This document shows, one piece after another, positions 906 to 63,915 of a stretch of DNA of 64,000 bases. How positions within the stretch are numbered: position 1 is the stretch's first letter; every line of letters begins with the position of its first letter. Below the pieces are notes generated by a model. That model was not told the origin of the DNA. It did no database searches and saw only the letters and a program-made list of their open reading frames with translations. The translations under genes and the position numbers were made by a program. This stretch comes from Octopus vulgaris (Eukaryota), in NCBI GenBank assembly GCA_951406725.2, contig OX597826.1:83018001-83082000 (forward strand), written 5' to 3'.

Positions 906-1415
906 CTATTTGAATCTAGAAAAGGTGAACGGTAGCCTATGAATGCAAAAGAAGTTTTTTTCATTAATGTTGTTAATAATTTGCCGACCCGCTTTAATAA
1001 TGAAAAAAATTTCATTAATACATAGAGAGCATTTTTTATTTTTTCCATTATACACAGGTGCTGAAGTTAGTATTTTCCAGTTTAATCTAAAATCCAAGTT
1101 CTTACTTTTAAGTTCCCAAATATATGCACTAAGCCCTGTAGAGTACATTCTATTTTTATTTCTAAAAGTATATCTGTGATAATTCAATCTTTGTTTTATG
1201 CTATTCATAGTTGCCCCGATATACACCCTACTACTCAATTGTGTATCTACAGTGCATTGGTAAACTACCTCCTTCCTGAGGCATTGATTACCAAATACAC
1301 ATTTATTTTTGTTTCTGCAATTACAAAGATTAACAGAATGAGGAAATCTAAGATTGGTCTCCACCCCTATACTACCATTCACATTATAAGTGTTACAATT
1401 GTTATCATCATCCAA
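906..1415 (-). CDS. GIY-YIG endonuclease domain of a Penelope-like retroelement (Naiad-type), 5'-truncated fragment
   Basis: CNC-x5-C-x5-C followed by VVYQC...VYIG, KQRLNYH, LSAYIWELK, CSLC and C-x-H, the PLE GIY-YIG/Zn-finger layout. The N-terminal ATG is probably not native. Confidence 0.88.
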   Translation of the reverse strand: MDDDNNCNTYNVNGSIGVETNLRFPHSVNLCNCRNKNKCVFGNQCLRKEVVYQCTVDTQLSSRVYIGATMNSIKQRLNYHRYTFRNKNRMYSTGLSAYIWELKSKNLDFRLNWKILTSAPVYNGKNKKCSLCINEIFFIIKAGRQIINNINEKNFFCIHRLPFTFSRFK

Positions 1416-1500
1416 TTTTATATTTTACATCTTTATATTTTTATATTTATATGTATATGATTATATAATATTTTTCACAATTATAACAAATTTAATTTAA

Positions 1501-1616
1501 TTCTCTGAAGAGGCCGTGGGGCATCCTTGTTAATGCCTCATTTATACCTGCCTTTATGGCTTATAGGTTAAATGAGGTATGACTGCCCTCACTGCCGAAA
1601 CAGCTGTCAGTTTTGA
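1501..1616 (+). ncRNA. Type I hammerhead ribozyme with long stem II in a Penelope pLTR-like segment
   Basis: Core CTGAAGA 1505-1511 and GAAA 1597-1600. Stem II GGC.GTG.GGGCA/TGCCC.CAC.GCC, plus inner 12-bp helix 1533-1544/1569-1580. Palindromic stem III ACAGCTGT, cleavage triplet GTC 1606-1608. Stem I is imperfect. Confidence 0.75.
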
Positions 1617-6207: not shown

Positions 6208-7157
6208 TGATACAATTTAAAGAACATACTCTGTGTCTGTTCTTTCTCTCCCCGTTCCATTTTTTCCTGTCTTTATCCCAAATCGATTTGAAAATATTGG
6301 CAACAGTTGAAAAGAATGCAGTCTACTCGATGTCTACGTTAGAAACAACGAAGTATAGCAAAACAGTTCCGTTTAATGAAGTTCCCCGACCGAAAATGAC
6401 ACTTCATCTCAGCGCCTCTTGCCAATAGACGTCTATTAAGAAGTATTCGACAATCTGTACTAAAGACTCTCTGCGTTTAACACCCTGACTTGGCACCGGG
6501 CTATATTGCATATTATACAGTGGCATCGACCTTGTAGATTCTTCTCTGGCGCTTCACTAATAGAAATAGCAAGTAAATTTTCTTCAAACTTTGCACTGAC
6601 GTCTTAAATATCTGACATTCGAGATTAAACAACTAACATCCATGACCGAACAGTGTTAGTAAAATGGCTCCTCGAACAAGTTTAATGAAGGGCAAATTAA
6701 ATAATATGGTTCTGTTACACGGTATCAACAAAATAACGCGGAATAATTTTGACTGGAGTATCTTTGATATGTCTGATAGTTCAAGGCTGATCCGGAGATA
6801 AACAATAAAAATTCGTTTATAGTTTTCAGATATAACAGTAGCTAGAGCTCCCTCAAATCCTACACAACTATATTAAAAGCATTTTGTGTTTATCTGGAGA
6901 TGTATTCGCAAATATAAACTACACTTGAAAATATCGTTAAAACTGGAGCGTCTTTGATCTGAGGTAATTTAGATCAACCTTACCCGAGGCTAAATAACTA
7001 CAGAAAGGACAAGAATGGATAATGTAGTACATGAGAGAAAGTACTTCAAAAATAAGACTGAAAGGTCACCGTTGGGTGAAACGCCTATATATATAAGTCT
7101 GTTTGATCAGGGCTGACATGGAGTTAAACAACTCATTTTATAATTAATTAAATTTTT

Positions 7158-7340
7158 ACGGTATTTTAGCGGCATTAAGTCTGTCTTTACGTTCTGGGTT
7201 CATGTTCCGCCGAGGTCGACTTGGTCTTTCATCCTTTCGAAGCCGGTAAGTTAAGTACCAGTTGCGTAATTGGGTCGATCTAATGGACTGGCCTCCTCCC
7301 CAAAAGTTTCTGGACTTGTGCCAAGAGCAGAAAGGAATAT
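7158..7340 (+). mobile_element. tRNA-derived SINE, family B (5'-truncated)
   Basis: ccgccgaggtcgactt...tttcatcctttcg...aagtaccagttgcg...gggtcgatctaat shared with the other family B copies. Confidence 0.8.
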
Positions 7341-7931
7341 AATTACAAAATATATAACTGACAAAAGATGGTGAAGGTAAGGAATAAAAATGTCGGCCTG
7401 ACCAAAAATCATTAGAGTAAGAACTTAGTTTCACCCTACGAATGCTGAACCAAAATACTAGGAAGGTCGACTTTATATTTCACTATGTCCATCAGAGGAG
7501 GATAAGAAAGTGAAGTACCAGTGATATCATATCACCAGCGCGTTACAATTTACAAGCCTTCACCCAATGTAAAGGGATCGATACGGAGTACCAGCAATGA
7601 TAATCGAATTTTTGTAGCTTTTTCTTTTGTTTTGTTTTTTTTAAACAGAAGTGTTTGGCTTAGTAATACTAATTTATTAGTTACGAAGTCGATGTAAATG
7701 GCCACTAGAATAAGATTTGACAAAGTCTCCATGGAAGGGCTTCGAACCTTTGTAATAAACGGACGTGAACTAAAGATCGAAGAACATTTTTGCCTGGATG
7801 CTGTATTGATTTTATTGTAGATTGCAGTATTCACAAATTTACCAATAATCAAGTAAGTTCTAGATAGCTTGGTACTTTATTTAGGTTTGGATTTAATTTG
7901 TAAGCAAAACTGTGTGAGAGTATGTTTCTGC

Positions 7932-7987
<56 letters not shown>

Positions 7988-8008
7988 TTATATATATATA
8001 TATGTGTG

Positions 8009-8057
<49 letters not shown>

Positions 8058-8279
8058 ACATAGCAAATTCGGTTTTTTATACCAATCTCTCAACCAATAA
8101 TCATCGAATACTGAAGCTGGCGCAGTACTGTACCAGTATCTCCAATTCTAGCATTCAATTCGGCTTTCTGCCCCACCCTATCGCTCGTAAATACGACCCC
8201 AAGACGCTTAAACGTCTCCACTGGTCTCTAATTATAGAGGAACCTCCTTGATGATTATCCTCAGTAAAATCTGTGCTCG

Positions 8280-9170
8280 ATGTCTGGAAAGTAGAAGTAG
8301 GAAAATTGTCGAAATCGAAACGGCTGAAACAGGCTTCCGTCCTGGATACAGCACAACCGAAAAAATATTCTTTGAAAGGTAGGTCTTCGGGGAATTGTAG
8401 GAATATTGTCAGTAAGTGTATGCTTGCTTTGTAGACCTCTGAAATCTAGACCTCTGCGTGCCGTGAAATATTTTTGTAGGTGTTTGAGATTAATGGACAA
8501 TGTCCAAGTGCTTGTGTTCGTGTAAACGGTGCTGGGTGTGAATCTTTGACAGGGGTGCGAATTTTCATCTCACTTTTCATAATTATTATGAACTGGATTG
8601 ACACACACAACTGTTGAGGTATTGGAATCAGAATCGATGGGTGTAGGATCGATCGATATTTTCAGGCAACATAGTGCTACATAGCTCGTCAGAATATAAT
8701 TTTCGGCATACATTAAACACGTTCGCAGCCGAGTGCTGCAAGACAAGAAGAATAAGTGTCGCAAATATATGAGTTCTCTCAAGAAAGTCACCCCTAGTGC
8801 ACTCTCCATGTTAATACACTTCATGAATATTCTTTTGAAATGCATGAATGCCGCGACCTCCTGTTAAAGTACAATGACTTTGTACTTTCTCGAAAACAAC
8901 AAGTATCCTAATGTGATTTGGTGCATTAGACAGAGATAGGCTTGGTCTGTGTGCTAAGAAATTTCTCTTTGGGAACAGGCGGCTTCAAGTTCAATCCTTC
9001 AGTGCAGCATTCTGTAGACTCATCTTCGAATACTTCTGAAAGAAATTTGGCAGAACTAATCTGAGTGAAACTGTTTATCCTTATGGTTGTACCTGCGCCT
9101 AGAATTGTCGCAGCTGGAATATCTTTTCTCAAAAGTCTTCTCGCCTAGGCCTACCGGAAGTTAAGCATAA
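8280..9170 (+). pseudogene. Highly degenerate RTE-like LINE reverse transcriptase remnant
   Basis: Residual peptides ACVRVNG, QGC, LFIIIMNWID, GIRIDG and ELSLG-like segments in RT domain order. Many frameshifts. Confidence 0.5.
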
Positions 9171-12100
9171 AAACACGTGTCGAGACATATAAAACTGTTG
9201 ATATTAGAGCAGTTATTTATTAGAATTTTATGCCAATGCGAGATGTGAAAGAAGTGCAGTAATCGTCCTTATATGGACAAGAAAGAAATTAAATAGGAAT
9301 TCAATCAAAATATTTCAATTTCTTAATTTTACCTTGAATTAATCTACAATTTAAACTATAAACCTTAAAGTAAGATGATTTACTTTTTATCGTCTAATCC
9401 ATTCGCTCGTTGTACATCTGCTTACCAGATATATTTATCGACCTATGACCAATGGTATTCTAGATACCGTTTCCAGTATTCCATCGTGTAGTTACGGCTG
9501 TTTGGTTAACAATTTCGCTTAATAACTGCATGACATCTTATCACTGTAACAGTGCAGTACCTCGGGCAAGTGGATTATTCTGTCACCTCTGGTCGACCAG
9601 TCTTCAAGTTCAGATCTGATGGACGGAAACTGTATGGAGGCTTTCCAGACAGAACTTGCTAGTTTTTTATTTTTTTATTTTATGGCAGACTTAATTCTTT
9701 ACTGTGTTTGAACACCACACTTTTCACTTTAATGTCTTAAACATTCGAGCGAAGCCCGGATTTAAAGGTTGATTTCTTTTCTTCCATTTATTAATCCTGA
9801 AGGCCTGAAAAAAGTAAAAAAAACATCGCCTTACATCCTTTCACTTACACCGTAAATATATATTTCAAAGCATTTTTAAAAGCTTCATTCGGAGATAGGG
9901 TTAAAATCGCCAATGCTACTCTTGGTGGCTCAAAAACTACGCTAAATCGCAATGGTTAATTGCAGCTGGAGGTAAAGTGTATTAAGGTTCTAAGATTTAT
10001 GAAACTGTAACCTTTGCGAACACGATCACAGCACATTGCCAGTCACCTGATGCAATCTATAAATCTATTGAGTACCAGAAGTTGGGAAAATATAATGCCA
10101 TTGAGAAACACAAAATATATCCCATTGCTTGGACTATTTGCATTACTATTTGTCGACTACACCGAAGAGTTTCCTTGGATTCTGCTGTTTACGACCATAG
10201 ATTCAATTATCTTGAAGTTGATCATCTTACGTCACAGGAATCTCGACCTGGTTGCACCGTCTCATACAAAATGAAACCACATCTTACTATTTGAAACAGC
10301 ATTTAAGGGATAATGTAGATAATTTCCTAAATACACTGGGTTCGAAAACAAAATCTCAGATAGGTGGTAAGGGTTGGAACGTCTTTGATCTTAAGTCGAC
10401 CGCAACAAACCTGGCTTGTGGCTAAACAACAACTGCAATAACTGGCATTTCTCATTTTGCGTTTCATTTACTTAGACATATAGGAATTACTTTTCCCATA
10501 AGCCTCACAAAATATTTCTAACATCTAACATTATAATCCCATTTCTGTACCACAACCCACTCTCACCATTTTTGCCTTCCAACGCGAAGCTGCGAGCTTG
10601 TTAACTATTAACTCCGCCTAACCTTCAACATACATACGCCTTCTTCTCCATGAAATATTTATCTCCCTTTCTTCAACTCTTCAATTAAAGGTTGCCAACT
10701 AACTTTACTTCCCCAGCTGACAGCCCACTTATCAATTCCATCACATACATCATCATTAAATGTCCACACGTACTCTTTAGCTAGCATAGATTAAAATCAC
10801 GAGGTATAGAGTGATTATCAGTCAAAGGTTTTAATATGATTGATCCACTCTTATTTACTCCTTTCTTTCTGACACTGAAGACAATTTCTTCTATTGAAAT
10901 ACGAATTTTATTCCAGCCACTTTTAATTTTCTCACACCGATAGTAAACCTTTAATCTTATTCATCAATGAGTAGCATCTATATATTCCGTCTCCATACCA
11001 TTATATTTAGTAACTTTATTTCTAGATTTTCCTGTTACTTTGAAATTCTCTCTGTCTCATTGTGCATTATTCAATAGATTATTTCGTTCTTGTATTTTAG
11101 TATTTTACAAATTTTCTACGACTTTCTTTAATCTTTTCGATTTCAACATTTACCTCGCAATATATTCTATATTCAATGTCTGAATTATATTTCAACATTT
11201 TGCTTTCAATATCTTTTACGTTCAGTGTCTGAACATTATTCATTATATAAATAAATGACGTCTTTCATCGAAATGCACAAGACACACATTTGGGCGGAGG
11301 ATGTTGTCGTTTATCGGAAATTCCATTATTTGATTAGAATTTTATTTCATCGACCCCAAAAGTCTGAAATGGAAATGTTGTACATTATTTTATTGATTTC
11401 CCGAAAGACAGCGAGGAAAATTTCAACCCCAGCAGAATTCGAACGTAAATATACTACAAGTAGTCTTGTCCGTTACTTTACCGTTTTTATCAATATATCC
11501 ACTTAGTTTGAATTTATGCAAGACGTTCTTATAAATGAATTGGATTTAGGTTGACAAAAGCTAAGGATACGGTTTCAATTGTCAGTTGGCGTTAATCACC
11601 TTGAATTTTATCCTTGATGTTTCTAGGAAATTATGACCGTTACAAAATCCCTATTCCTCTCCACGAATCTAGTCGTTCACTCTCACCGAAAATACGTCAA
11701 TATTTATGTTGTTCCAATTGATAAGATTGAGGATTTGCAGAAATGACAGACTTTAGATGAAAGTCTCTTATTGTATTTAGTTTAGTTCTTTTATCTTCAT
11801 CTGCGTTCAAATGCTGTCAGTGTAACTTTGTAAGGTCACCTTTCACCGAGCGTATCTCTTAAGAGTCGCTAACTTAAAGTACCAGCTCAAGCGGAAAATT
11901 CACGGAATTGTTAGAGTCCTGAACGAGCTGCTTTGCGTTATTTGTTTTTAGTTCTTTGCGTCTTGTGTTCTTTGATGGTAAATTCGTAGCCCATTTAGCA
12001 CAACCACGCGGGTATAATCGGTTCGTAGATCTATTTCATTTCCCACGTGATTCTTGAGCAACTTTAGCTGAGTACACTCTATTGTAGCCATTCGGGCCTG

Positions 12101-13072
12101 GTCGCCTTTTTAAACAAAACCTACTCGCTTCTTCTCCAACCAAACTTTGAGGATCTGAAAGAAAGTAAATGTCTACCCCGTCTATACCACAAACAATACC
12201 ATTGCGTGCTATTTAATATAGTTATGAAATGTTGTGAAACGACCCTTTGGCGTGTGAAAGATTCAACTAACAAGTTGACTCTATCACATCAAATTCGATA
12301 TGAGAAATAAAGATAACACAAGTTAATGAGTTCTTTTCTAGTAATTCTAAATTTTACTCTTTCTACACGTTTAGCAGTTCATCTAAATGTGTAGGAAAGA
12401 TAAACTGTTATTTGAAGTTTAAACAACAAAATAACAGAATTAGTTTTTAAAACATTCAGTCATAAACTTTTTTTATTTTATTCCATCAATTTAAACCAAT
12501 CATTCCTTTAGAAACTCCAACCATTTTCCAAAATGTACTATCTTCACCTGCTCTCACTTTTAACTTCTAAAATTAAGTTTGGAATGAAATGAAAATTAGA
12601 AATCGATTAAAATAAAATGGAGAAATGAAATAAAAGAAAAATGGAGGAGAAAAATAAAAGAGAAGGACAAATGTTTCTGTATTTCTTCAGAATGTCTTAA
12701 AGGATTAATATTTGTTCATAAGCGAGCAATAATTCTGTTCCGTGATTTCTTTTCCATAACAAATCAATCTGCTGCTGTTTAAACAGAAACGGATGTGATA
12801 TTATAGAAATCTCATTGTATACGGAAATAGCGTGCAGACTTACACAGGTTAATGGATGGTCTTAGTAAATGTCTTTATTCAAGTTGAAATTTTGAAAACG
12901 CCTTAAATTTTGATTTTAATGATTCCTTTATCGGTTAAAATGTGACAGAGACTAAAGATTTATAGTGTAATCAAATCTATTCACTCTCACTCTACCTCTC
13001 CTCTCTTTCTTTCTCTTTTTCTCTCTCTCTCTCCCTATCACTCTTTCTTCTTCTCTCTCCCGCTCCCTCTCT

Positions 13073-13112
<40 letters not shown>

Positions 13113-14250
13113 TTTTTTCTCTCATTCTTTTTCCACTTTCTCTCATTGTCTCTAAAATGATCTGTGGAAAGAGGCCTTGATTCTTATTTCAATTCAATAA
13201 CTGGTTCGAGCAATCAATTTCTCTGAAATTTAGTTGTTTTAATTGTATTGTAATATTTTCCGGCAAATTGCGTGAAGTAAAAGATAAAAAAAAATTTCAA
13301 ATTACAAATCTGAAAATAAAACTATGAAAAAGTATATCGATATGTTTCATTCACAAATACTCAAAATTAAAGAAAAACATGCTATATACCTCGCAAAAGA
13401 ATTGTCACTGTGTTAGAGAATTCCAATTAATACAACGGATAAGAAGCATATTATTAGCAGATCATCGAGGGCCTACTTCTTTATTAATTTTATAATCGCA
13501 TTTAGCGACCAACAACGTCACTGATAACAGGCTTGCAGCGAATCTTTCACTGGTTCATTGAATTTTATAATAGATTACTGAGGGAGAAATATCTCACGGA
13601 AATATTCTACATGCAAATTGAAATCTAGTGCGGCGGTCTCATACACGTAATATAGTAATCTTTTGAAAAGTGCAGATCAACTGATATTATCCAGCATCTG
13701 GATAATCGCTAACTCGGTTGTTAATATCTAATACACTGAATTAATTGAAAAGTTTTGACATAGGAAATGTAGCTTAAGAATGGAATGTAGCTTAAGAATG
13801 GCTTTTGTCTTAAAGTAACTGGAGGAAGCAACAGACTTGCTTTGGCCCTATTAAATAAGCTTAGCAAAACATTCTACTTGGCAAGACAGCGAGATTTTTG
13901 TCGCCACTAATTTGATTCATGATCTCAGTTAATCTTTTTTCAACTAATATTAAATGTGTGAAACCTTTAAGTATTGTCAATAATAGTGATCTTGGGAAAA
14001 AAAACTTGTAAAAAGACTGTTTTACTGCACTCGAAACCTAAACCACCCGATTCACACAGCATTTCATATCATATTTTTCCTAGTGAATTTCATTAACCAG
14101 ATATCTCTCTAAGCCCTTCGTTCGGTTTCCTCCCGTCATTTGCAGCTCCCTGCAAATCCTTCCTTTATGCTTTATTTTCCCAAATAAGGTAAAAATCGTT
14201 TTCAACCATTTACAGGTGTGTGTATGTGAATGTATGTATATATGTATGTA

Positions 14251-24910: not shown

Positions 24911-25237
24911 AGCATAAAATAATGTGTAAAAAAAAGGGAATAAACATTAAAATATAAAAACTATTTTACCGTAAGTGCTACAGAACTACCCTCGTTTTTT
25001 CTTTCCAACCTAAAGGCTATGCACACGCATACGCGTTTGTGTGTGTGTATGTGTGTGTGTGCGTGTGTGTGTGTGTGTGCAATTAATGTTGCATCAGTAA
25101 TACTCTAGTCTGTGTATGCTATATATCAATATGCAGCCCTAGGAAGCATCGACGCTTCCTGTCGACCTTGACACATTTCCTGTGTCCTTATATATTTACG
25201 AAGGGGAGACAAGCACCCCCAACAGCTAGGCCTGTAG

Positions 25238-25281
25238 CTAGAGACACGCATGTTCCTGGGTCTTGCCCGTCATCAGTCTAG
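25238..25281 (-). ncRNA. Type I hammerhead ribozyme, minus-strand copy (core GAAA mutated to GGAA)
   Basis: Reverse complement reads ctaga CTGATGA cggg caaga ccca GGAA catgcgt GTC tctag. Confidence 0.7.
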
Positions 25282-25323
25282 AGTATCAAGGCCTGCTAGC
25301 TGAAGATACCTGCCTAGACCTCG

Positions 25324-25371
<48 letters not shown>

Positions 25372-25590
25372 GGGCTAAATAGCGGTGAGGTAATTCCCTT
25401 TACGTGACTGTCACGTTATGTTAACAGTATACAACCATTCTATCGCTCCACCACCCCTCATATCTCTCTGAGATATTTAGAAATTTAATATTTCTAATTT
25501 TGGTGATCAGTGAATAAATTTCACTGAAAAAATATATATATATATTTACGAAGTCTAGACAGGTATCTTCAGCTAGCAGGCCTTGCTACT

Positions 25591-25634
25591 CTAGACTGAT
25601 GACGGGCAAGACCCAGAAACATGCGTGTCTCTAG
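25591..25634 (+). ncRNA. Minimal type I hammerhead ribozyme
   Basis: Stem I CTAGA/TCTAG, core CTGATGA, stem II GGG/CCC (C-A mismatch at base), GAAA, quasi-palindromic stem III ACATGCGTGT, cleavage after C25629. Confidence 0.82.
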
Positions 25635-25801
25635 ATACAGGCCTAGCTGTTGGGGGTGCTTTTCACCCCTTCGTAAATATATAATGACACAGGAAATGTG
25701 TCAAGGCCGACAGGAAGCATCGATGTTTCCTAGGGATAAATAGCGGTGGTGTAATTCCCTTTATGGGACTGTCACGTTAAGTTGACAGTATACAACCGCT
25801 A

Positions 25802-25844
<43 letters not shown>

Positions 25845-25848
<4 letters not shown>

Positions 25849-29059: not shown

Positions 29060-29920
29060 CAGTAAACTCCAGCTGTTTGACTCCTTTCTTGACTAGTGTT
29101 CGTGTCATAGGGTAGAGGGGACATACTTATCAAACTTATTTTAGGTTAAAGCTAGTTAGTTGTAGTATGTTTCCCTTCAAGATAAAATTATTTTAATCTA
29201 TGATACTGTAAAATACAACCTAGCAAATATAGGAAGGTACAATGAATTAATTAGAACTATAAAATTAAATCAGAATCAGTTAAGAAAAACAGTAAGAAGA
29301 ATATTCTTTTACCCCTAGAAGAAATTAAATTAAGTAAAGTTACATTGCATAAAATCAGTTCTACTGTCGGTCTGTTTGCAGCTGATACTGTATATTACAT
29401 TTGCTCTTCCCTATGAAGAGGTAGACACCCTTGAAGGACAACTAAGTAAATAAAATTAACATATTTATATAATTAGGGTGCACTAATCAATAGTTTGTTT
29501 ATTCGGGAGAGCTTGGAAGATTCTTCTAAATAAATGAGATCAGTGTAACATTAATCTGTTCCACTATTTTATGAGGTGAGAGTTGCATCTAAGTAACTGG
29601 AGTGTTTCCTCGAGTTATAAATTACACCTAACATTACCGCCATTATTTGCTAAGGCTCTGCCTATTATACACCATTCAATATGGTATTTAATATCCTCTT
29701 TGAGGCTTCAAATAAACTTACTTAATAAAGTAACGCTTTCTTTCATTTCTGTATTGAAATGAAGACTTATGATTCTATAATTACGATTACAATTTTTTTG
29801 CGCAAACTTCTTTATAAAAAAGATTTCACTGGATTTTCCAAAACATTTATAACTTGTATTTTTTCATAGGCATTGGTTATTCAAGGGACAGTCTAGGCGG
29901 TTTCGACTACTACATAATTT
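29060..29920 (-). pseudogene. Second, degenerate Penelope-like GIY-YIG remnant with 3' UTR
   Basis: CSSRNRLDCPLNNQCL, YRNHKSSF, LSKFI*SLKEDIKYHIEWCIIGRA, RCNL*LEE and H*SH align colinearly with the 906-1415 ORF. A decayed HHR-like tgataag...aaacagctg lies at ~29070-29133. Confidence 0.75.
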
Positions 29921-31163
29921 GCTAAATCTGTCATAAAATAAGTTCCCGTTCGATAAGTTCACATTCCTTCTGTTACTTATTTGAGATGTTGAGCACGGAC
30001 CATTCCCCATGTCATGACACCATACGTTTGTCATACAGATACTTTCCTTAAATGAATTACATATCCTTGATTCCATTTCTTTCTGCCTGTTTGCTTTGTT
30101 GTTCTTTCTTTTCTTGAATTCTCCTGTTGTTTGAGTAACTTTTGGCACATCTCTACCTGCTGATAGAATTGTTTCTCACTCTGCACAGCATAAATTTTCA
30201 AACAAAACATCGCAGATTCAAAACCTCTGTAATACACAGTCTGACTAATTGCTTCAACCTACCAACCTCAATATTCGTGGGAGCTGAGTTCAAATCGCGC
30301 AAATTTATAAAGGTCATTGAAAAATTCCATTCCTCTAATATATCTTAATATTTAATTAAATGTGATCTATTTAAACGGGTGGAGAAGATGACTTTTGAGA
30401 ATGGGTTGACCTGATAGCTATTCTAAGACGAGAAGAGGGAAGTTACTTTCAAACCGAAGACCTGGCCCAAATACCAAAGCGTGATGGACCCTACTAAAAG
30501 CACTAAGGATCCAGGTTGTGATGTTTATCCTGGCGACTATTTACGTCTATCACCCAAAATTTTGAGCGTTTAATTTGGCGGCTTCCTACACAACTTCTTT
30601 CAACCCATTTTAGCTTCTGAGGATTGTGTGACTCCGAGAATCTAAAGAGACAGCTGCTCAAAGTGCTACTTATTGGAATTGTTACAGTAACCACGTAGAA
30701 ACTTTTTAAGCAGAGAATTATGCCTGTGTCTATTTGATATTTCAGCTTAGTAATGTTCTACCGTCTCCAAGCTATGCTGTAAGAAATTGAAATCTTTATT
30801 AATCAGAAATTAATCTCAAACTTTTGTAATTAAAAGATATTTCTTTAGTCAGCAGGAGAAACATTTGTTAATTACAATAGTAATGAGATTTTTTAAATCA
30901 TAGATTAAGCTTTGGTTCCTCAATTTTAAGTATTTCTGCTACAAAAATGTTTTAAAAAGCGGAATCTCTTGAAGAATATCTGACCTTCAGGAAAGTACTT
31001 CGATATTTTCGATCATTTATTATTTATGAGTACAAGTAAATTACGGGGGGATGTCAATTTAATTTATTTGGATTAGAGAGATTATCCATATGGTGTATGA
31101 CTGGTCGTGCGATTGAATCAGATTTTTTATTGTTTACCGTACAAGATATCCAATGGCAGTTAG

Positions 31164-33795: not shown

Positions 33796-33798
33796 TAT

Positions 33799-34304
33799 AA
33801 TTGAAGAAATTGGCATCAACAAGAAGGAGTTATTTTTCAATTGCTACAATTGTTCCGACGCAACATAATTCTCCAGGTATAACAGGTATTTGATTCTGCA
33901 ATTGTTTGTTTGCATAATGAGATGTAGTTGTGTTTCTTCATGTGATCTGCGAGTGTGGTTAGCCTTAGTTTAAGATCGTCGACTTCAAGGCCATCCCCTC
34001 CGTCCGTCGTGGTTTGCAGTCCACCAAACTCACTCTGGCATCACGCACCATCAGTCGATCAGCTACTACTAAATCCAAACCTCGACGAACGAAGAGGATG
34101 GCCTGAAGTCGACGATTTTAAACTAACGGAGATAACACTCTCATATCACCTGAGGAAACACAACTAGATCTCATTATCAAAATAAACAATTGCATAATCA
34201 AATACCTGTATACTTCGAGAACTTCGTTCCGTCGAAACAATTGTAGCGATTAAAAAGTAAATGTCCAACCGCACTCCTTCTTCCTGATTTCAATTTCTTC
34301 AATT
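33799..34304. repeat. Long inverted repeat / fold-back (MITE-like) element
   Basis: Arm 33799-34016 is the diverged reverse complement of 34076-34304 (e.g. aattgaagaaattg/caatttcttcaatt, atcgtcgacttca/tgaagtcgacgat, acaggtatttgatt/aatcaaatacctgt). Spacer about 60 bp. Confidence 0.88.
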
Positions 34305-34429
34305 TTACTTTCACACACGATGAATGCCCAAACTTAATCTTGGAAGTATATAAGACTACCTGATAGTATGGGTAATTTTGAAAGTGGACGAACTTTATAC
34401 TCTACCACGTTCCTAACGGAATATACCAT

Positions 34430-36900: not shown

Positions 36901-39062
<2,162 letters not shown>

Positions 39063-53149: not shown

Positions 53150-54100
53150 CAAGTCTACACTTAGAGAGGTACCATCTCTAAGGTACATGAATGGAAAGGT
53201 ATCACAACAGCAGACAACACTCACGAAGACTCATAAGTGTAAATCCCCTGGTAACCATGGAGTGCCAAATGTCTGGCTCGCATCGATCTCGTGCGAACAC
53301 GAAAAATTAGTCCAGTTATTCAATGGAATCATGGGAAAACACCTAGTTGGTTAGCAAGAAGTATTGCTTACCTACTCCCGGAGAATAAGGAAACCAAATT
53401 TCCCCGAAACTCTCAGCTCATGACTTGTCTACCTACCACTTATAAAATTATAACATCCATCCTCGTAGAGAAATCATACAAAATTTATGGAAGAGAACGA
53501 TATCTTCCCCACTGAATGAAAAGTGTACCGACTGGCTCATATGGATGCAAAGACCAACTCTCAATCAATCGCATGATCCTTGAGAACTGTTATAACAAAC
53601 GTAGGAATCTCAGTTCCGCATGGACTGATTATAAAAAGGTATTTGACAGGATACCGCTTTCACAAATCTTGAAATCGTTGGATGTCTTCAAAATTTCTCC
53701 TGTGATTTCAAAGTTCCTCAAATACAACATGTTAATGTGGGATACAAATCTCCATTATACCACTCTAATAAACTACTGACCACGAAAAAAATATATAGTA
53801 TGCTTGCTACCTGTTGCCTACGGAAACATGCCTTGACAGTATACCGCATTCATGGATCTTGAAATCGCTGGAAATCTTCAAACTTTCTCCTTCGATTTCA
53901 AACTTCCTGAAGCACAACACGTTAGTGTGGAATACGAATCTCCAATTATACCACTTTAATGGAATACTGACCACAAAAATATATAAATATCAACTGCGGC
54001 TTTTACCAAGGTGACTCACTTTCATCTTTAATTTTTTTGCATAGCCCCATTACCTCTTACGAATGAACTTAACAGAACGGGCTATGGGCACAAAATAAGT
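53150..54100 (+). pseudogene. R4/Dong-like reverse transcriptase remnant with internal duplication
   Basis: KSPGNHG, TCLPTTYKIITSI, GCKDQLSIN, AWTDYKKVFDRIP and GFYQGDSLS (RT domains 0-4). Frameshifted. Confidence 0.85.
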
Positions 54101-62621: not shown

Positions 62622-63263
62622 TACCAGGCCAACATATTAGAGAACAGCAGTAGCCCAACATGTCGTGTATGTCAACAACAAAATGAAACCATTGATCATG
62701 TTGCCTCCAAGTGCAATCTTCTTGCGCCCACAGAGTATCTCAACAGGCATGATAGAGCTGCACAATATATTCACTGGGTAATTTGCAGAAGCCTGGACTT
62801 GCCCCATGATAAAACTGGTGGGAACACAAACTACCTCCAGTGCTTGAAAATGACCACATCTCACTCCTCTGGAACTTCACCATTCAAACTGACAGAAAGA
62901 TAGATGCGAATAGGCCAGACATCATAGTAAAAGGCTTCAGACAAAAAACATGCCTCCTCATTGATATGACTGTCCCAATCGATATAAACGTATCTGTCAA
63001 GACCTACCAGAAACTGAGCAAATATAAAGATCTGGAAATAGAAATCAGCAAAATGTGGAACCTGAAGACTAAAACAATACCTGTTGTCATAGGCGCCATG
63101 GGAATAATAGCAAAAGTGGCTGATAGCTACCTAACTCAGATACCAGGAAACCCAAAAATGGCAGAAATTCAAAAGATAGTGCTCATGGGAACTGCTCATA
63201 TCCTACGCAAAATACTTTCTTTGTAATCTCAAGTTTTAAAACAAACATAATTTTTGTATGGTT
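62622..63263 (+). mobile_element. 5'-truncated Dong-like element (zinc knuckle + RLE)
   Basis: YQANIL...CRVCQQQNETIDHVASKC...RHDRAAQYIHW, frameshift, then ORF 62840-63226 WNFTIQTD...RPDII...LIDMTVP...KLSKYKDL...GTAHILRK. Confidence 0.92.
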
Positions 63264-63915
63264 AAGGAAGAGATGAAAAGCCCAGAAGAAGAGCAAAGAA
63301 GATTGGCTAGAAAAACCGATGCATGGCCGATACCCATGTAGAGTGAACAAACCAGACGTAGAAAAACGAGACACTCATGTATGGATTAAGAACTCAGGAC
63401 TGAAGGCCGAAACCGAAGGTTTTATCATAGCAGCACAAGATCAAAGCTTGGCAACCAGGGCTTACCACAACAAAATAATGAACGATGGCACTGACCCGAA
63501 ATGCAGAATGTGCCATGGGCAGGATGAAACAGTGGACCACATCTTAACTGGATGCCCAGCACTTGCAAAAGCTGAATATATTCATAGACACGATAGAGTA
63601 GCGCAATATATCCATTGGAAGATATGTAAACACTACCAGCTTCCAACTTCAGAAAGATGGTACCAGCATAAACCTGAAGCTGTGACTGGAAAAGATGATG
63701 TAACAGTAATCTGGGACATGCCAACCAACAGCGATAAAGAAACCAAGGCAAACAGGCCGGACATAATCATCAAAGATGTGAAGAATAAAAAATGCTTACT
63801 GACATATGTGACAGTACCATCAGAGAGAAGTGTGTCTATTAAAGAAATTGAGAAGTTATTTAAGTACAAAAACCTAGAAATAGAAGTGACCAAGATGTGA
63901 GGAATTAAAAGCAGC
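63264..63915 (+). mobile_element. Dong-like fragment (zinc knuckle + RLE)
   Basis: ORF 63319-63900: MHGRY, GLKAETEGFIIAAQDQ, CRMC...H...C, RHDRVAQYIHW, RPDIIIKD, EKLFKYKNL. Confidence 0.92.

Follow-up and report, generated by a model that had tools for sequence, protein, structure and literature searches.

A worn copy of an abundant, protein-free 361-nt repeat with a predicted self-cutting RNA motif, in a mirror-image layout likely left by a Penelope-type enzyme

The locus analysed here raises the question of how DNA with a predicted self-cutting RNA motif came to lie as a mirror image of itself among TA repeats, and of which enzyme and which form of RNA template could have put it there. In this study of a 64-kb window (the whole stretch of DNA that was analysed), we conclude that the locus is a worn copy of an abundant, protein-free 361-nt repeat with a predicted self-cutting RNA motif and that the element is of the ordinary retrozyme class, with a clean insertion scar of the type made by Penelope-like elements (PLEs). 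The mirror-image layout was likely left by a Penelope-type enzyme that copied RNA from two points at once.

Layout and fold of the unit

The original prediction described a unit of about 260 nt; however, 25371-25436 recurs directly as 25732-25797 (89% identity, spacing 361), which gives a period of 361 nt, and the shorter unit was rejected because the structured segment D (25441-25530) belongs to the unit and is part of the family. The order of the locus is inverted(AB), (TA)21, C, D, TA linker, A, B, C, (TA)n, and its parts are as follows.

25135-25327, minus strand: inverted partial copy (A, B and the first 6 nt of C), with 12 differences in 193 nt from 25545-25737
25327-25368, no strand: (TA)21 between the inverted and forward pieces, the equivalent of the TA linker ahead of segment A
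25371-25440, plus strand: segment C, first copy, two hairpins and an AC-rich end, opening the forward piece
25441-25530, plus strand: segment D, a strand complementary to segment C followed by three hairpins (z = -6.6)
25531-25544, plus strand: A/(TA) linker from D to A, spanned by diverged contigs in four of four runs
25545-25677, plus strand: segment A, a long rod with the hammerhead at its tip (from the fold)
25590-25635, plus strand: type I hammerhead motif, with core, three helices and a predicted cut after C25629
25684-25731, plus strand: segment B, two hairpins (from the fold and family depth)
25732-25802, plus strand: segment C, second copy, and 3' end of the insertion (direct repeat; loose ends at 25796-25800)
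about 25800-25848, no strand: (TA)n flank

The whole reads as one decayed 1.7-unit insertion. The inverted copy that had been placed at 25137-25327 was confirmed, with 94% identity to the forward sequence across 191 nt. The end of the inverted piece and the start of the forward piece share the same 6 nt (AGGGCT), one unit upstream, and the forward piece carries 65 nt more than the inverted piece and ends AC-rich; these last 65 nt of the second C (25738-25802), missing from the inverted piece, resemble a PLE tail. The description of the units as lying in (TA)n holds for 25327-25368 and about 25800-25848 but not for the outer end of the inverted copy, which has no adjoining (TA)n. No target-site duplication was seen beyond the TA repeats, and the flanks share an 8-nt TA-repeat match.

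The unit has a GC content of 40%, and 25137-25802 contains stops in all six frames, in agreement with the claim that it has no ORF. A tRNA-derived SINE was rejected, since ARAGORN finds no tRNA gene in the 64-kb window. The near-total self-complementarity proposed for 25545-25802 was borne out by a predicted fold of -99.5 kcal/mol (z = -6.19), which none of 200 shuffles equalled in stability; the antisense strand folds at -84.1 kcal/mol. Treated as a circle, one contiguous unit (25437-25797) has a predicted energy of -123.4 kcal/mol (z = -8.7), which none of 100 shuffles reached. Segment D also pairs with segment C, 25449-25458 forming nine Watson-Crick pairs of ten with 25742-25751, and the sole mismatch of this helix is closed by the letter that 96% of the family depth carries at 25456. 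The proposed TGACACA/TGTGTCA hairpin survives in part: segment B does fold as two hairpins, but the outer pair is private to this copy. At 25685, 99.6% of the family depth carries a letter other than the one found here.

The hammerhead motif and its family

The presence of a hammerhead was supported by the core, the helices and a comparison of descriptor matches with shuffled windows. The motif reads TCTAGA / CTGATGA / C GGG CAAGA CCC A / GAAA / CATGCGTG / TC / TCTAGA; its core is made up of CTGATGA (25596-25602) and GAAA (25616-25619), then TC, with cleavage predicted after C25629. Helix I consists of 6 bp (TCTAGA/TCTAGA) plus an internal loop, helix II of 3 bp (GGG/CCC) plus a C.A apposition at its base (four positions), and helix III of 3 bp plus a near-palindromic tetraloop. 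The descriptor matched three times in the 64-kb window (from 25596 on the plus strand and from 25276 and 37276 on the minus strand), compared with four matches in 30 shuffled windows (mean, 0.13).

The motif had been called minimal; however, by published usage its helix sizes are canonical. The same sizes are given for the canonical type I motifs of metazoans, whereas the minimal motifs of PLEs have a helix II of 7 to 8 bp and a helix I of 4 to 5 bp (Cervera and de la Pena, PMC4209133). The base of helix II is atypical in that no G10.1-C11.1 pair, termed highly conserved (PMC4209133), stands beside the core. The Rfam search that had been suggested did not detect the motif: the hammerhead models gave no match to the unit at the gathering score or at an E value of up to 10, and none at an E value of up to 10 even on a 91-nt stretch. 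Pattern scans returned zero matches in metagenome contigs, genome contigs and viral contigs. In the energy model, a cleavage-competent monomer fold would lie 5.8 kcal/mol above the minimum, and two 46-nt copies of the motif are predicted to co-fold as a double hammerhead (-27.7 versus 2 x -11.7 kcal/mol). In the inverted copy, where the core runs from 25276 on the minus strand and the predicted cut falls after 25243, the outer pair of helix I is broken, and the hammerhead is likely inactive because G replaces a core A at 25255 (minus strand); we take such a core, from general knowledge, to be probably dead.

The family was examined in 24 listed runs, 20 of which hold words of the stretch, under four organism labels. 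One run per organism (A to D) was aligned at 80% likeness, which yielded 3,259, 2,676, 2,249 and 1,709 contigs, so that the sequence is not single-copy but occurs in thousands of contigs across four organisms. These data support the proposal of a multicopy, non-autonomous, ORF-less hammerhead family. Relative depth, defined as summed depth divided by the median depth of eight pieces listed per run, was about 6,500 to 13,600 for B-C, 1,200 to 2,800 for the hammerhead and 150 to 350 for the start of the rod; because summed depth is no copy number, the latter is taken only as likely thousands.

Head-to-tail arrangement is supported by the period of 361, by joints and by bridging contigs. C-to-D joints in the runs go back 360 and 336 nt, and pieces bridging D to A occur in four of four runs, one of which differs by 24 letters and has 8 gap letters across 182 nt; therefore, both head-to-tail junctions exist at other loci. 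No long arrays were seen in the aligned contigs. Beyond 25796-25800, loose ends enter varied AT-rich DNA (consensus agreement, 0.5 to 0.6; 24 of 805 loose ends shown), which marks one common 3' end, and no family-wide terminus at the B/C border appeared among the 24 shown of 805. Family depth drops about tenfold at 25491-25520, within segment D, in all four runs; the drop may mark a second fixed 3' end or terminus or subfamily divergence. Truncation of the 5' side from the C end, read from depth, was rejected, since depth is no lower on D than on C and loose ends before 25681 run on into diverged A-like sequence; subfamily divergence or a second terminus near 25495-25510 fits the depth equally well. 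Recurrent inversions, read from opposite-strand joints, were also rejected because three of the six joints shown (25527, 25571 and 25577 to about 25680) may be artefacts of the self-complementary rod.

Family variation spares the predicted helices. The variant table showed 40 of 75 rows; nine were left out (five in the first C and four in the TA linker), and 31 were tested against a reference structure that is itself a prediction from the window copy alone. Six of the 31 variants break a pair, 9 keep one and 16 are unpaired, with 13.3 breaks expected were the same changes placed randomly (P = 0.001); for polymorphic sites only, 5 of 24 break a pair, with 10.1 expected (P = 0.009). These figures carry the caveats that several helix-sparing sites are CpG, that copies related to one another do not count as independent and that 35 rows lay outside the table as shown. 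As for the covariation that the original prediction called for, variants spare helices and G25563/C25659 changes on both sides; G25563, counted as a break, is half of this two-sided change. At six further sites, a letter present in the family closes a pair or strengthens one. The catalytic core contains none of the 40 rows shown (of 75). The letter carried by 39% of the depth at 25603 pairs with 25615, which brings helix II to 4 bp, and that carried by 38% at 25625 turns helix III into a perfect palindrome.

Insertion shape and the RNA template

In twin priming, as known from the L1 literature, a single template is engaged by two primers, and synthesis of the downstream copy ends at the point where the upstream one started. 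The geometry of this locus matches that expected for two primers engaging one template. Insertions of PLEs are described as partial tandems accompanied by an inverted 5' copy, with a tail of 30 to 40 bp on one end alone (Craig et al. 2021, PMC8557442). Furthermore, in AT-rich DNA a PLE protein was shown to nick both strands and extend them, starting internally at two sites in an AC-rich stem-loop; in vitro, uncleaved RNA is its main substrate and hammerhead cleavage is not needed (Frangieh et al. 2024, PMC11167929). The earlier attribution of the element to PLE mobilisation is supported by the layout, which combines a partial tandem, an inverted 5' copy, a one-ended tail and AT-rich DNA.

We consider the most probable explanation, in which we place moderate confidence, to be a non-autonomous retrozyme copied by a PLE, with a linear multimer a likelier template than a circle and a Neptune-type partner likelier than a Naiad. 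The unit would be transcribed as a structured RNA longer than one unit, and a PLE endonuclease-reverse transcriptase would nick both strands of TA-rich DNA. One nick would prime at the AC-rich end of C and copy C-B-A-D-C, while the other would prime at the B/C border one unit upstream and copy B-A in the opposite direction; the first copy would halt where the second began, and the two would be joined at the TA run. The template in this case would more likely have been a linear multimer with nonidentical units (or two RNAs) than one circle. Through its palindromic helix III, the motif would act as a double hammerhead in cutting multimers, although the cut need not have been part of this insertion. 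Several findings count against this explanation, namely, the tail of 65 nt versus the published 30 to 40 nt, the differences between the C copies, which a single clean template leaves unexplained, the helix II base, the 5.8 kcal/mol gap, the absence of an Rfam score, and the failure to find a PLE with matching ends, a B/C-border terminus among the 24 loose ends shown of 805 or a target-site duplication other than TA repeats.

The two copies of AB appear to come from one haplotype. Of 13 polymorphic sites, 12 have the same letter in both (7.6 expected), and at 25637 both have a letter that makes up 0.3% of the family depth; at 6 of their 12 differences in 193 nt, it is the plus copy that departs from the family majority. 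Such sharing, together with the closing of the unit on itself at both junctions and the predicted stability of the circular monomer, would also suit the circular RNA of the original prediction, in which a single unit, cut and ligated by its hammerhead, served the same PLE partner as a template for more than one turn, and mussel, coral and axolotl retrozymes of 220 to 390 nt do accumulate as circles (PMC7229834). We nevertheless regard this template as unlikely. Had a circle been copied 1.2 times, the C copies would be identical; instead, the two carry different family alleles at 25764, 25780, 25798 and 25799 (25764 and 25798 being CpG) and differ at three of the six listed polymorphic sites plus 25798; in all, they show 9 differences in 69 nt versus 12 in 193 for AB (Poisson P = 0.03, Fisher P = 0.12). 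The differing C alleles are therefore a mild argument against one circle as the template. To a modest degree, they fit a linear multimer whose units are not alike, a change of template from one RNA to another or gene conversion at a later time; that the AB copies match while the C copies differ is not fully explained. Moreover, the insertion neither begins nor ends at the cut site, and uncleaved RNA was the main substrate of the one PLE studied in vitro (PMC11167929).

A further possibility, which we judge improbable, is that the unit belongs to an autonomous PLE as its terminal repeat (pLTR), the locus being what is left of such an element after 5' truncation, along with the usual inverted copy. 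The inverted-plus-tail layout is the PLE norm (PMC8557442), and truncated PLEs are known to carry opposite-strand hammerhead pairs 100 to 700 bp apart; however, the 6-bp helix I and four-position helix II are canonical and not those of a PLE-minimal motif (both PMC4209133). In addition, segment A is preceded, at this locus and in diverged contigs, by D of its own unit, without an ORF; no RT-EN reading frame adjoins the unit at this locus, and at several loci the unit comes after another copy of itself and not after a coding region. The depth of run X1 at 25531 (7,965) is under half of that at 25550 (17,985), and therefore not every A start is shown to follow D. In Xenopus, 24 of 57 retrozyme families matched known elements, nearly all of them PLEs, at their termini (bioRxiv 10.64898/2026.07.22.740005), and an origin from a pLTR would be likely even if no copy of segment A adjoined RT-EN sequence. 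Finally, we consider it highly improbable that the locus is a pile-up in which members of the family inserted independently into one another's TA tails, or that the DNA was later inverted or altered by gene conversion. The family is abundant, many copies end beside TA-rich DNA and the C copies differ more than the AB copies, but the AB copies have a rare letter in common and agree at 12 of 13 polymorphic sites, the two breakpoints fall within 6 nt of each other and the D-to-A junction is a family feature.

Returning to a PLE-copied linear multimer, we tentatively postulate, as a possibility still open to considerable doubt, that this locus directly records how a retrozyme is moved: the PLE would use a linear multimeric RNA as the template at both primed target strands, without need of a circle or of ribozyme cleavage, and would recognize the structured B-C-D domain rather than the hammerhead. 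The family depth of this domain, in which the C-D helix surrounds the AC-rich end, is four to six times that of the hammerhead segment. If true, this would make the mobilisation of retrozymes testable with purified PLE protein and sub-unit RNA.

Relatives, partner element and other features of the window

By every sequence feature tested, the element fits an animal non-LTR retrozyme. The nearest likeness is to the retrozymes of Cervera and de la Pena (2020, PMC7229834), especially a mussel family of 350 to 390 bp: they share a type I hammerhead, a unit within 150 to 450 bp, head-to-tail order, no ORF, a GC content under 50%, extensive self-pairing, high copy number and PLEs in the same genome. 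Unlike those retrozymes, this locus has only 1.2 forward units plus an inverted piece and a helix II base without a G-C pair, and the element is known here from sequence alone. Target-site duplications of retrozymes are, when present, longer than 4 bp (PMC7229834), and insertion ends of the inverted-plus-tail kind are not described for retrozymes in the parts of the literature compared here.

Both that study and the work of Li, Clavereau, and Pollet on vertebrate non-LTR retrozymes (2026, bioRxiv 10.64898/2026.07.22.740005) propose that retrozymes derive from and depend on PLEs, mobilisation by PLEs being proposed and not demonstrated in either. The same relation is proposed here, but their evidence is co-occurrence and pLTR similarity, whereas ours is the shape of the insertion; their sampling included no mollusc. 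Monomers and partial arrays are common there as well, and eight of nine dimers failed to cleave. The locus falls outside their "active" class of two consecutive complete hammerheads, since it has one complete forward hammerhead and a second that is inverted and has a core change. Compared with endonuclease-bearing PLE insertions (PMC8557442, PMC11167929, PMC4209133), it is alike in its partial tandem, inverted 5' copy, one-ended tail, AT-rich target, AC-rich end and palindromic helix III and unlike in having no RT-EN frame, a tail of 65 nt versus 30 to 40 nt and canonical helix sizes.

Retrozymes have been described from cnidarians, mussels and amphibians, among other animals. Our literature search found no paper on a cephalopod retrozyme, and supplements (file S1 of Craig et al. 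and figure S6 of Cervera 2020) may bear on the point; the main text of a 2026 paper on O. vulgaris repeats uses the words ribozyme and retrozyme zero times (PMC13282606), and the O. vulgaris repeat library may also bear on it. With likely thousands of copies, four related organisms and PLE-type ends, the family offers material on which the partner enzyme and the form of the template can be tested. The copy analysed here is old and damaged, and its own contribution is modest.

The original prediction named as partner the Naiad-like PLEs of the window, a choice that the data do not favour. The best endonuclease in the window is a GIY-YIG ORF of a PLE with a Cys-rich linker at 906-1424 (minus strand), which ends in a stop 10 residues past the last conserved His and is followed by AT-rich DNA. 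It has 4,238 relatives at an E value of up to 0.001. Among the best 150 of these, 16 were single-match sequences of at least 300 aa (one repetitive match was left out), and in 13 of the 16 the match is C-terminal, with at least 170 aa upstream and fewer than 100 downstream; several relatives, as judged by eye, have reverse-transcriptase-like sequence upstream. Pfam assigned zero families to the ORF. A broken second PLE endonuclease remnant with several stops lies at 29500-30200 (minus strand); its GIY-YIG sequence, near 29.6-29.9 kb, matches the first with an E value of 6e-05. The end of the ORF, the AT-rich DNA beyond it and the C-terminal position in its relatives favour a Neptune-type element, subject to the caveat that Naiad and Neptune endonucleases are essentially indistinguishable; Naiads have no canonical hammerheads and persist only as remnants in cephalopods (Craig et al., PMC8557442). 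A C-terminal-endonuclease (Neptune-type) PLE is a more likely partner than a Naiad, in which the endonuclease is N-terminal, given hammerhead-free Naiads and the apparently C-terminal endonuclease of the window. A sequence link between the unit and either endonuclease locus was rejected, no shared sequence being found (best E value, 0.055, from AT-rich chance matches). No PLE with ends matching the unit was found at the endonuclease loci of the window, and the case for a PLE partner therefore rests on insertion shape and the literature.

Near the first endonuclease lies a second hammerhead-like core at 1505-1610 (plus strand), with CTGAAGA at 1505, GAAA at 1597, a palindromic helix III, a helix II of about 85 nt, a decayed helix I and a predicted cut after 1608. 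It is inverted relative to the minus-strand endonuclease ORF, with (TA)n following at 1805, and is likely an inverted terminal repeat of the 906-1424 PLE. The core at 1505 gave no Rfam hammerhead match, and 1505-1610 has no sequence relation to the 361-nt unit.

Other features of the window deserve mention. The third descriptor match, at 37203-37276 (minus strand), has short stems, lies inside a repeat present three times in the window and may be due to chance. A fold-back of about 510 nt at 33796-34307, with arms 74% alike and a predicted energy of -254.6 kcal/mol over 541 nt, has no other copy in the window and is possibly a MITE or another inverted insertion. Fragments of non-LTR retrotransposon C termini, with trinucleotide repeats adjoining, occur at 37781-38599 (minus strand) and at 62813-63226 and 63277-63900 (both plus strand); two of them give weak zf-RVT matches (E values of 7e-4 and 2e-5, below the cut-off), and all presumably resemble R4/Dong-type elements. 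At 53643-53985 there are two direct copies of about 156 nt, spaced by 190 and 83% alike.
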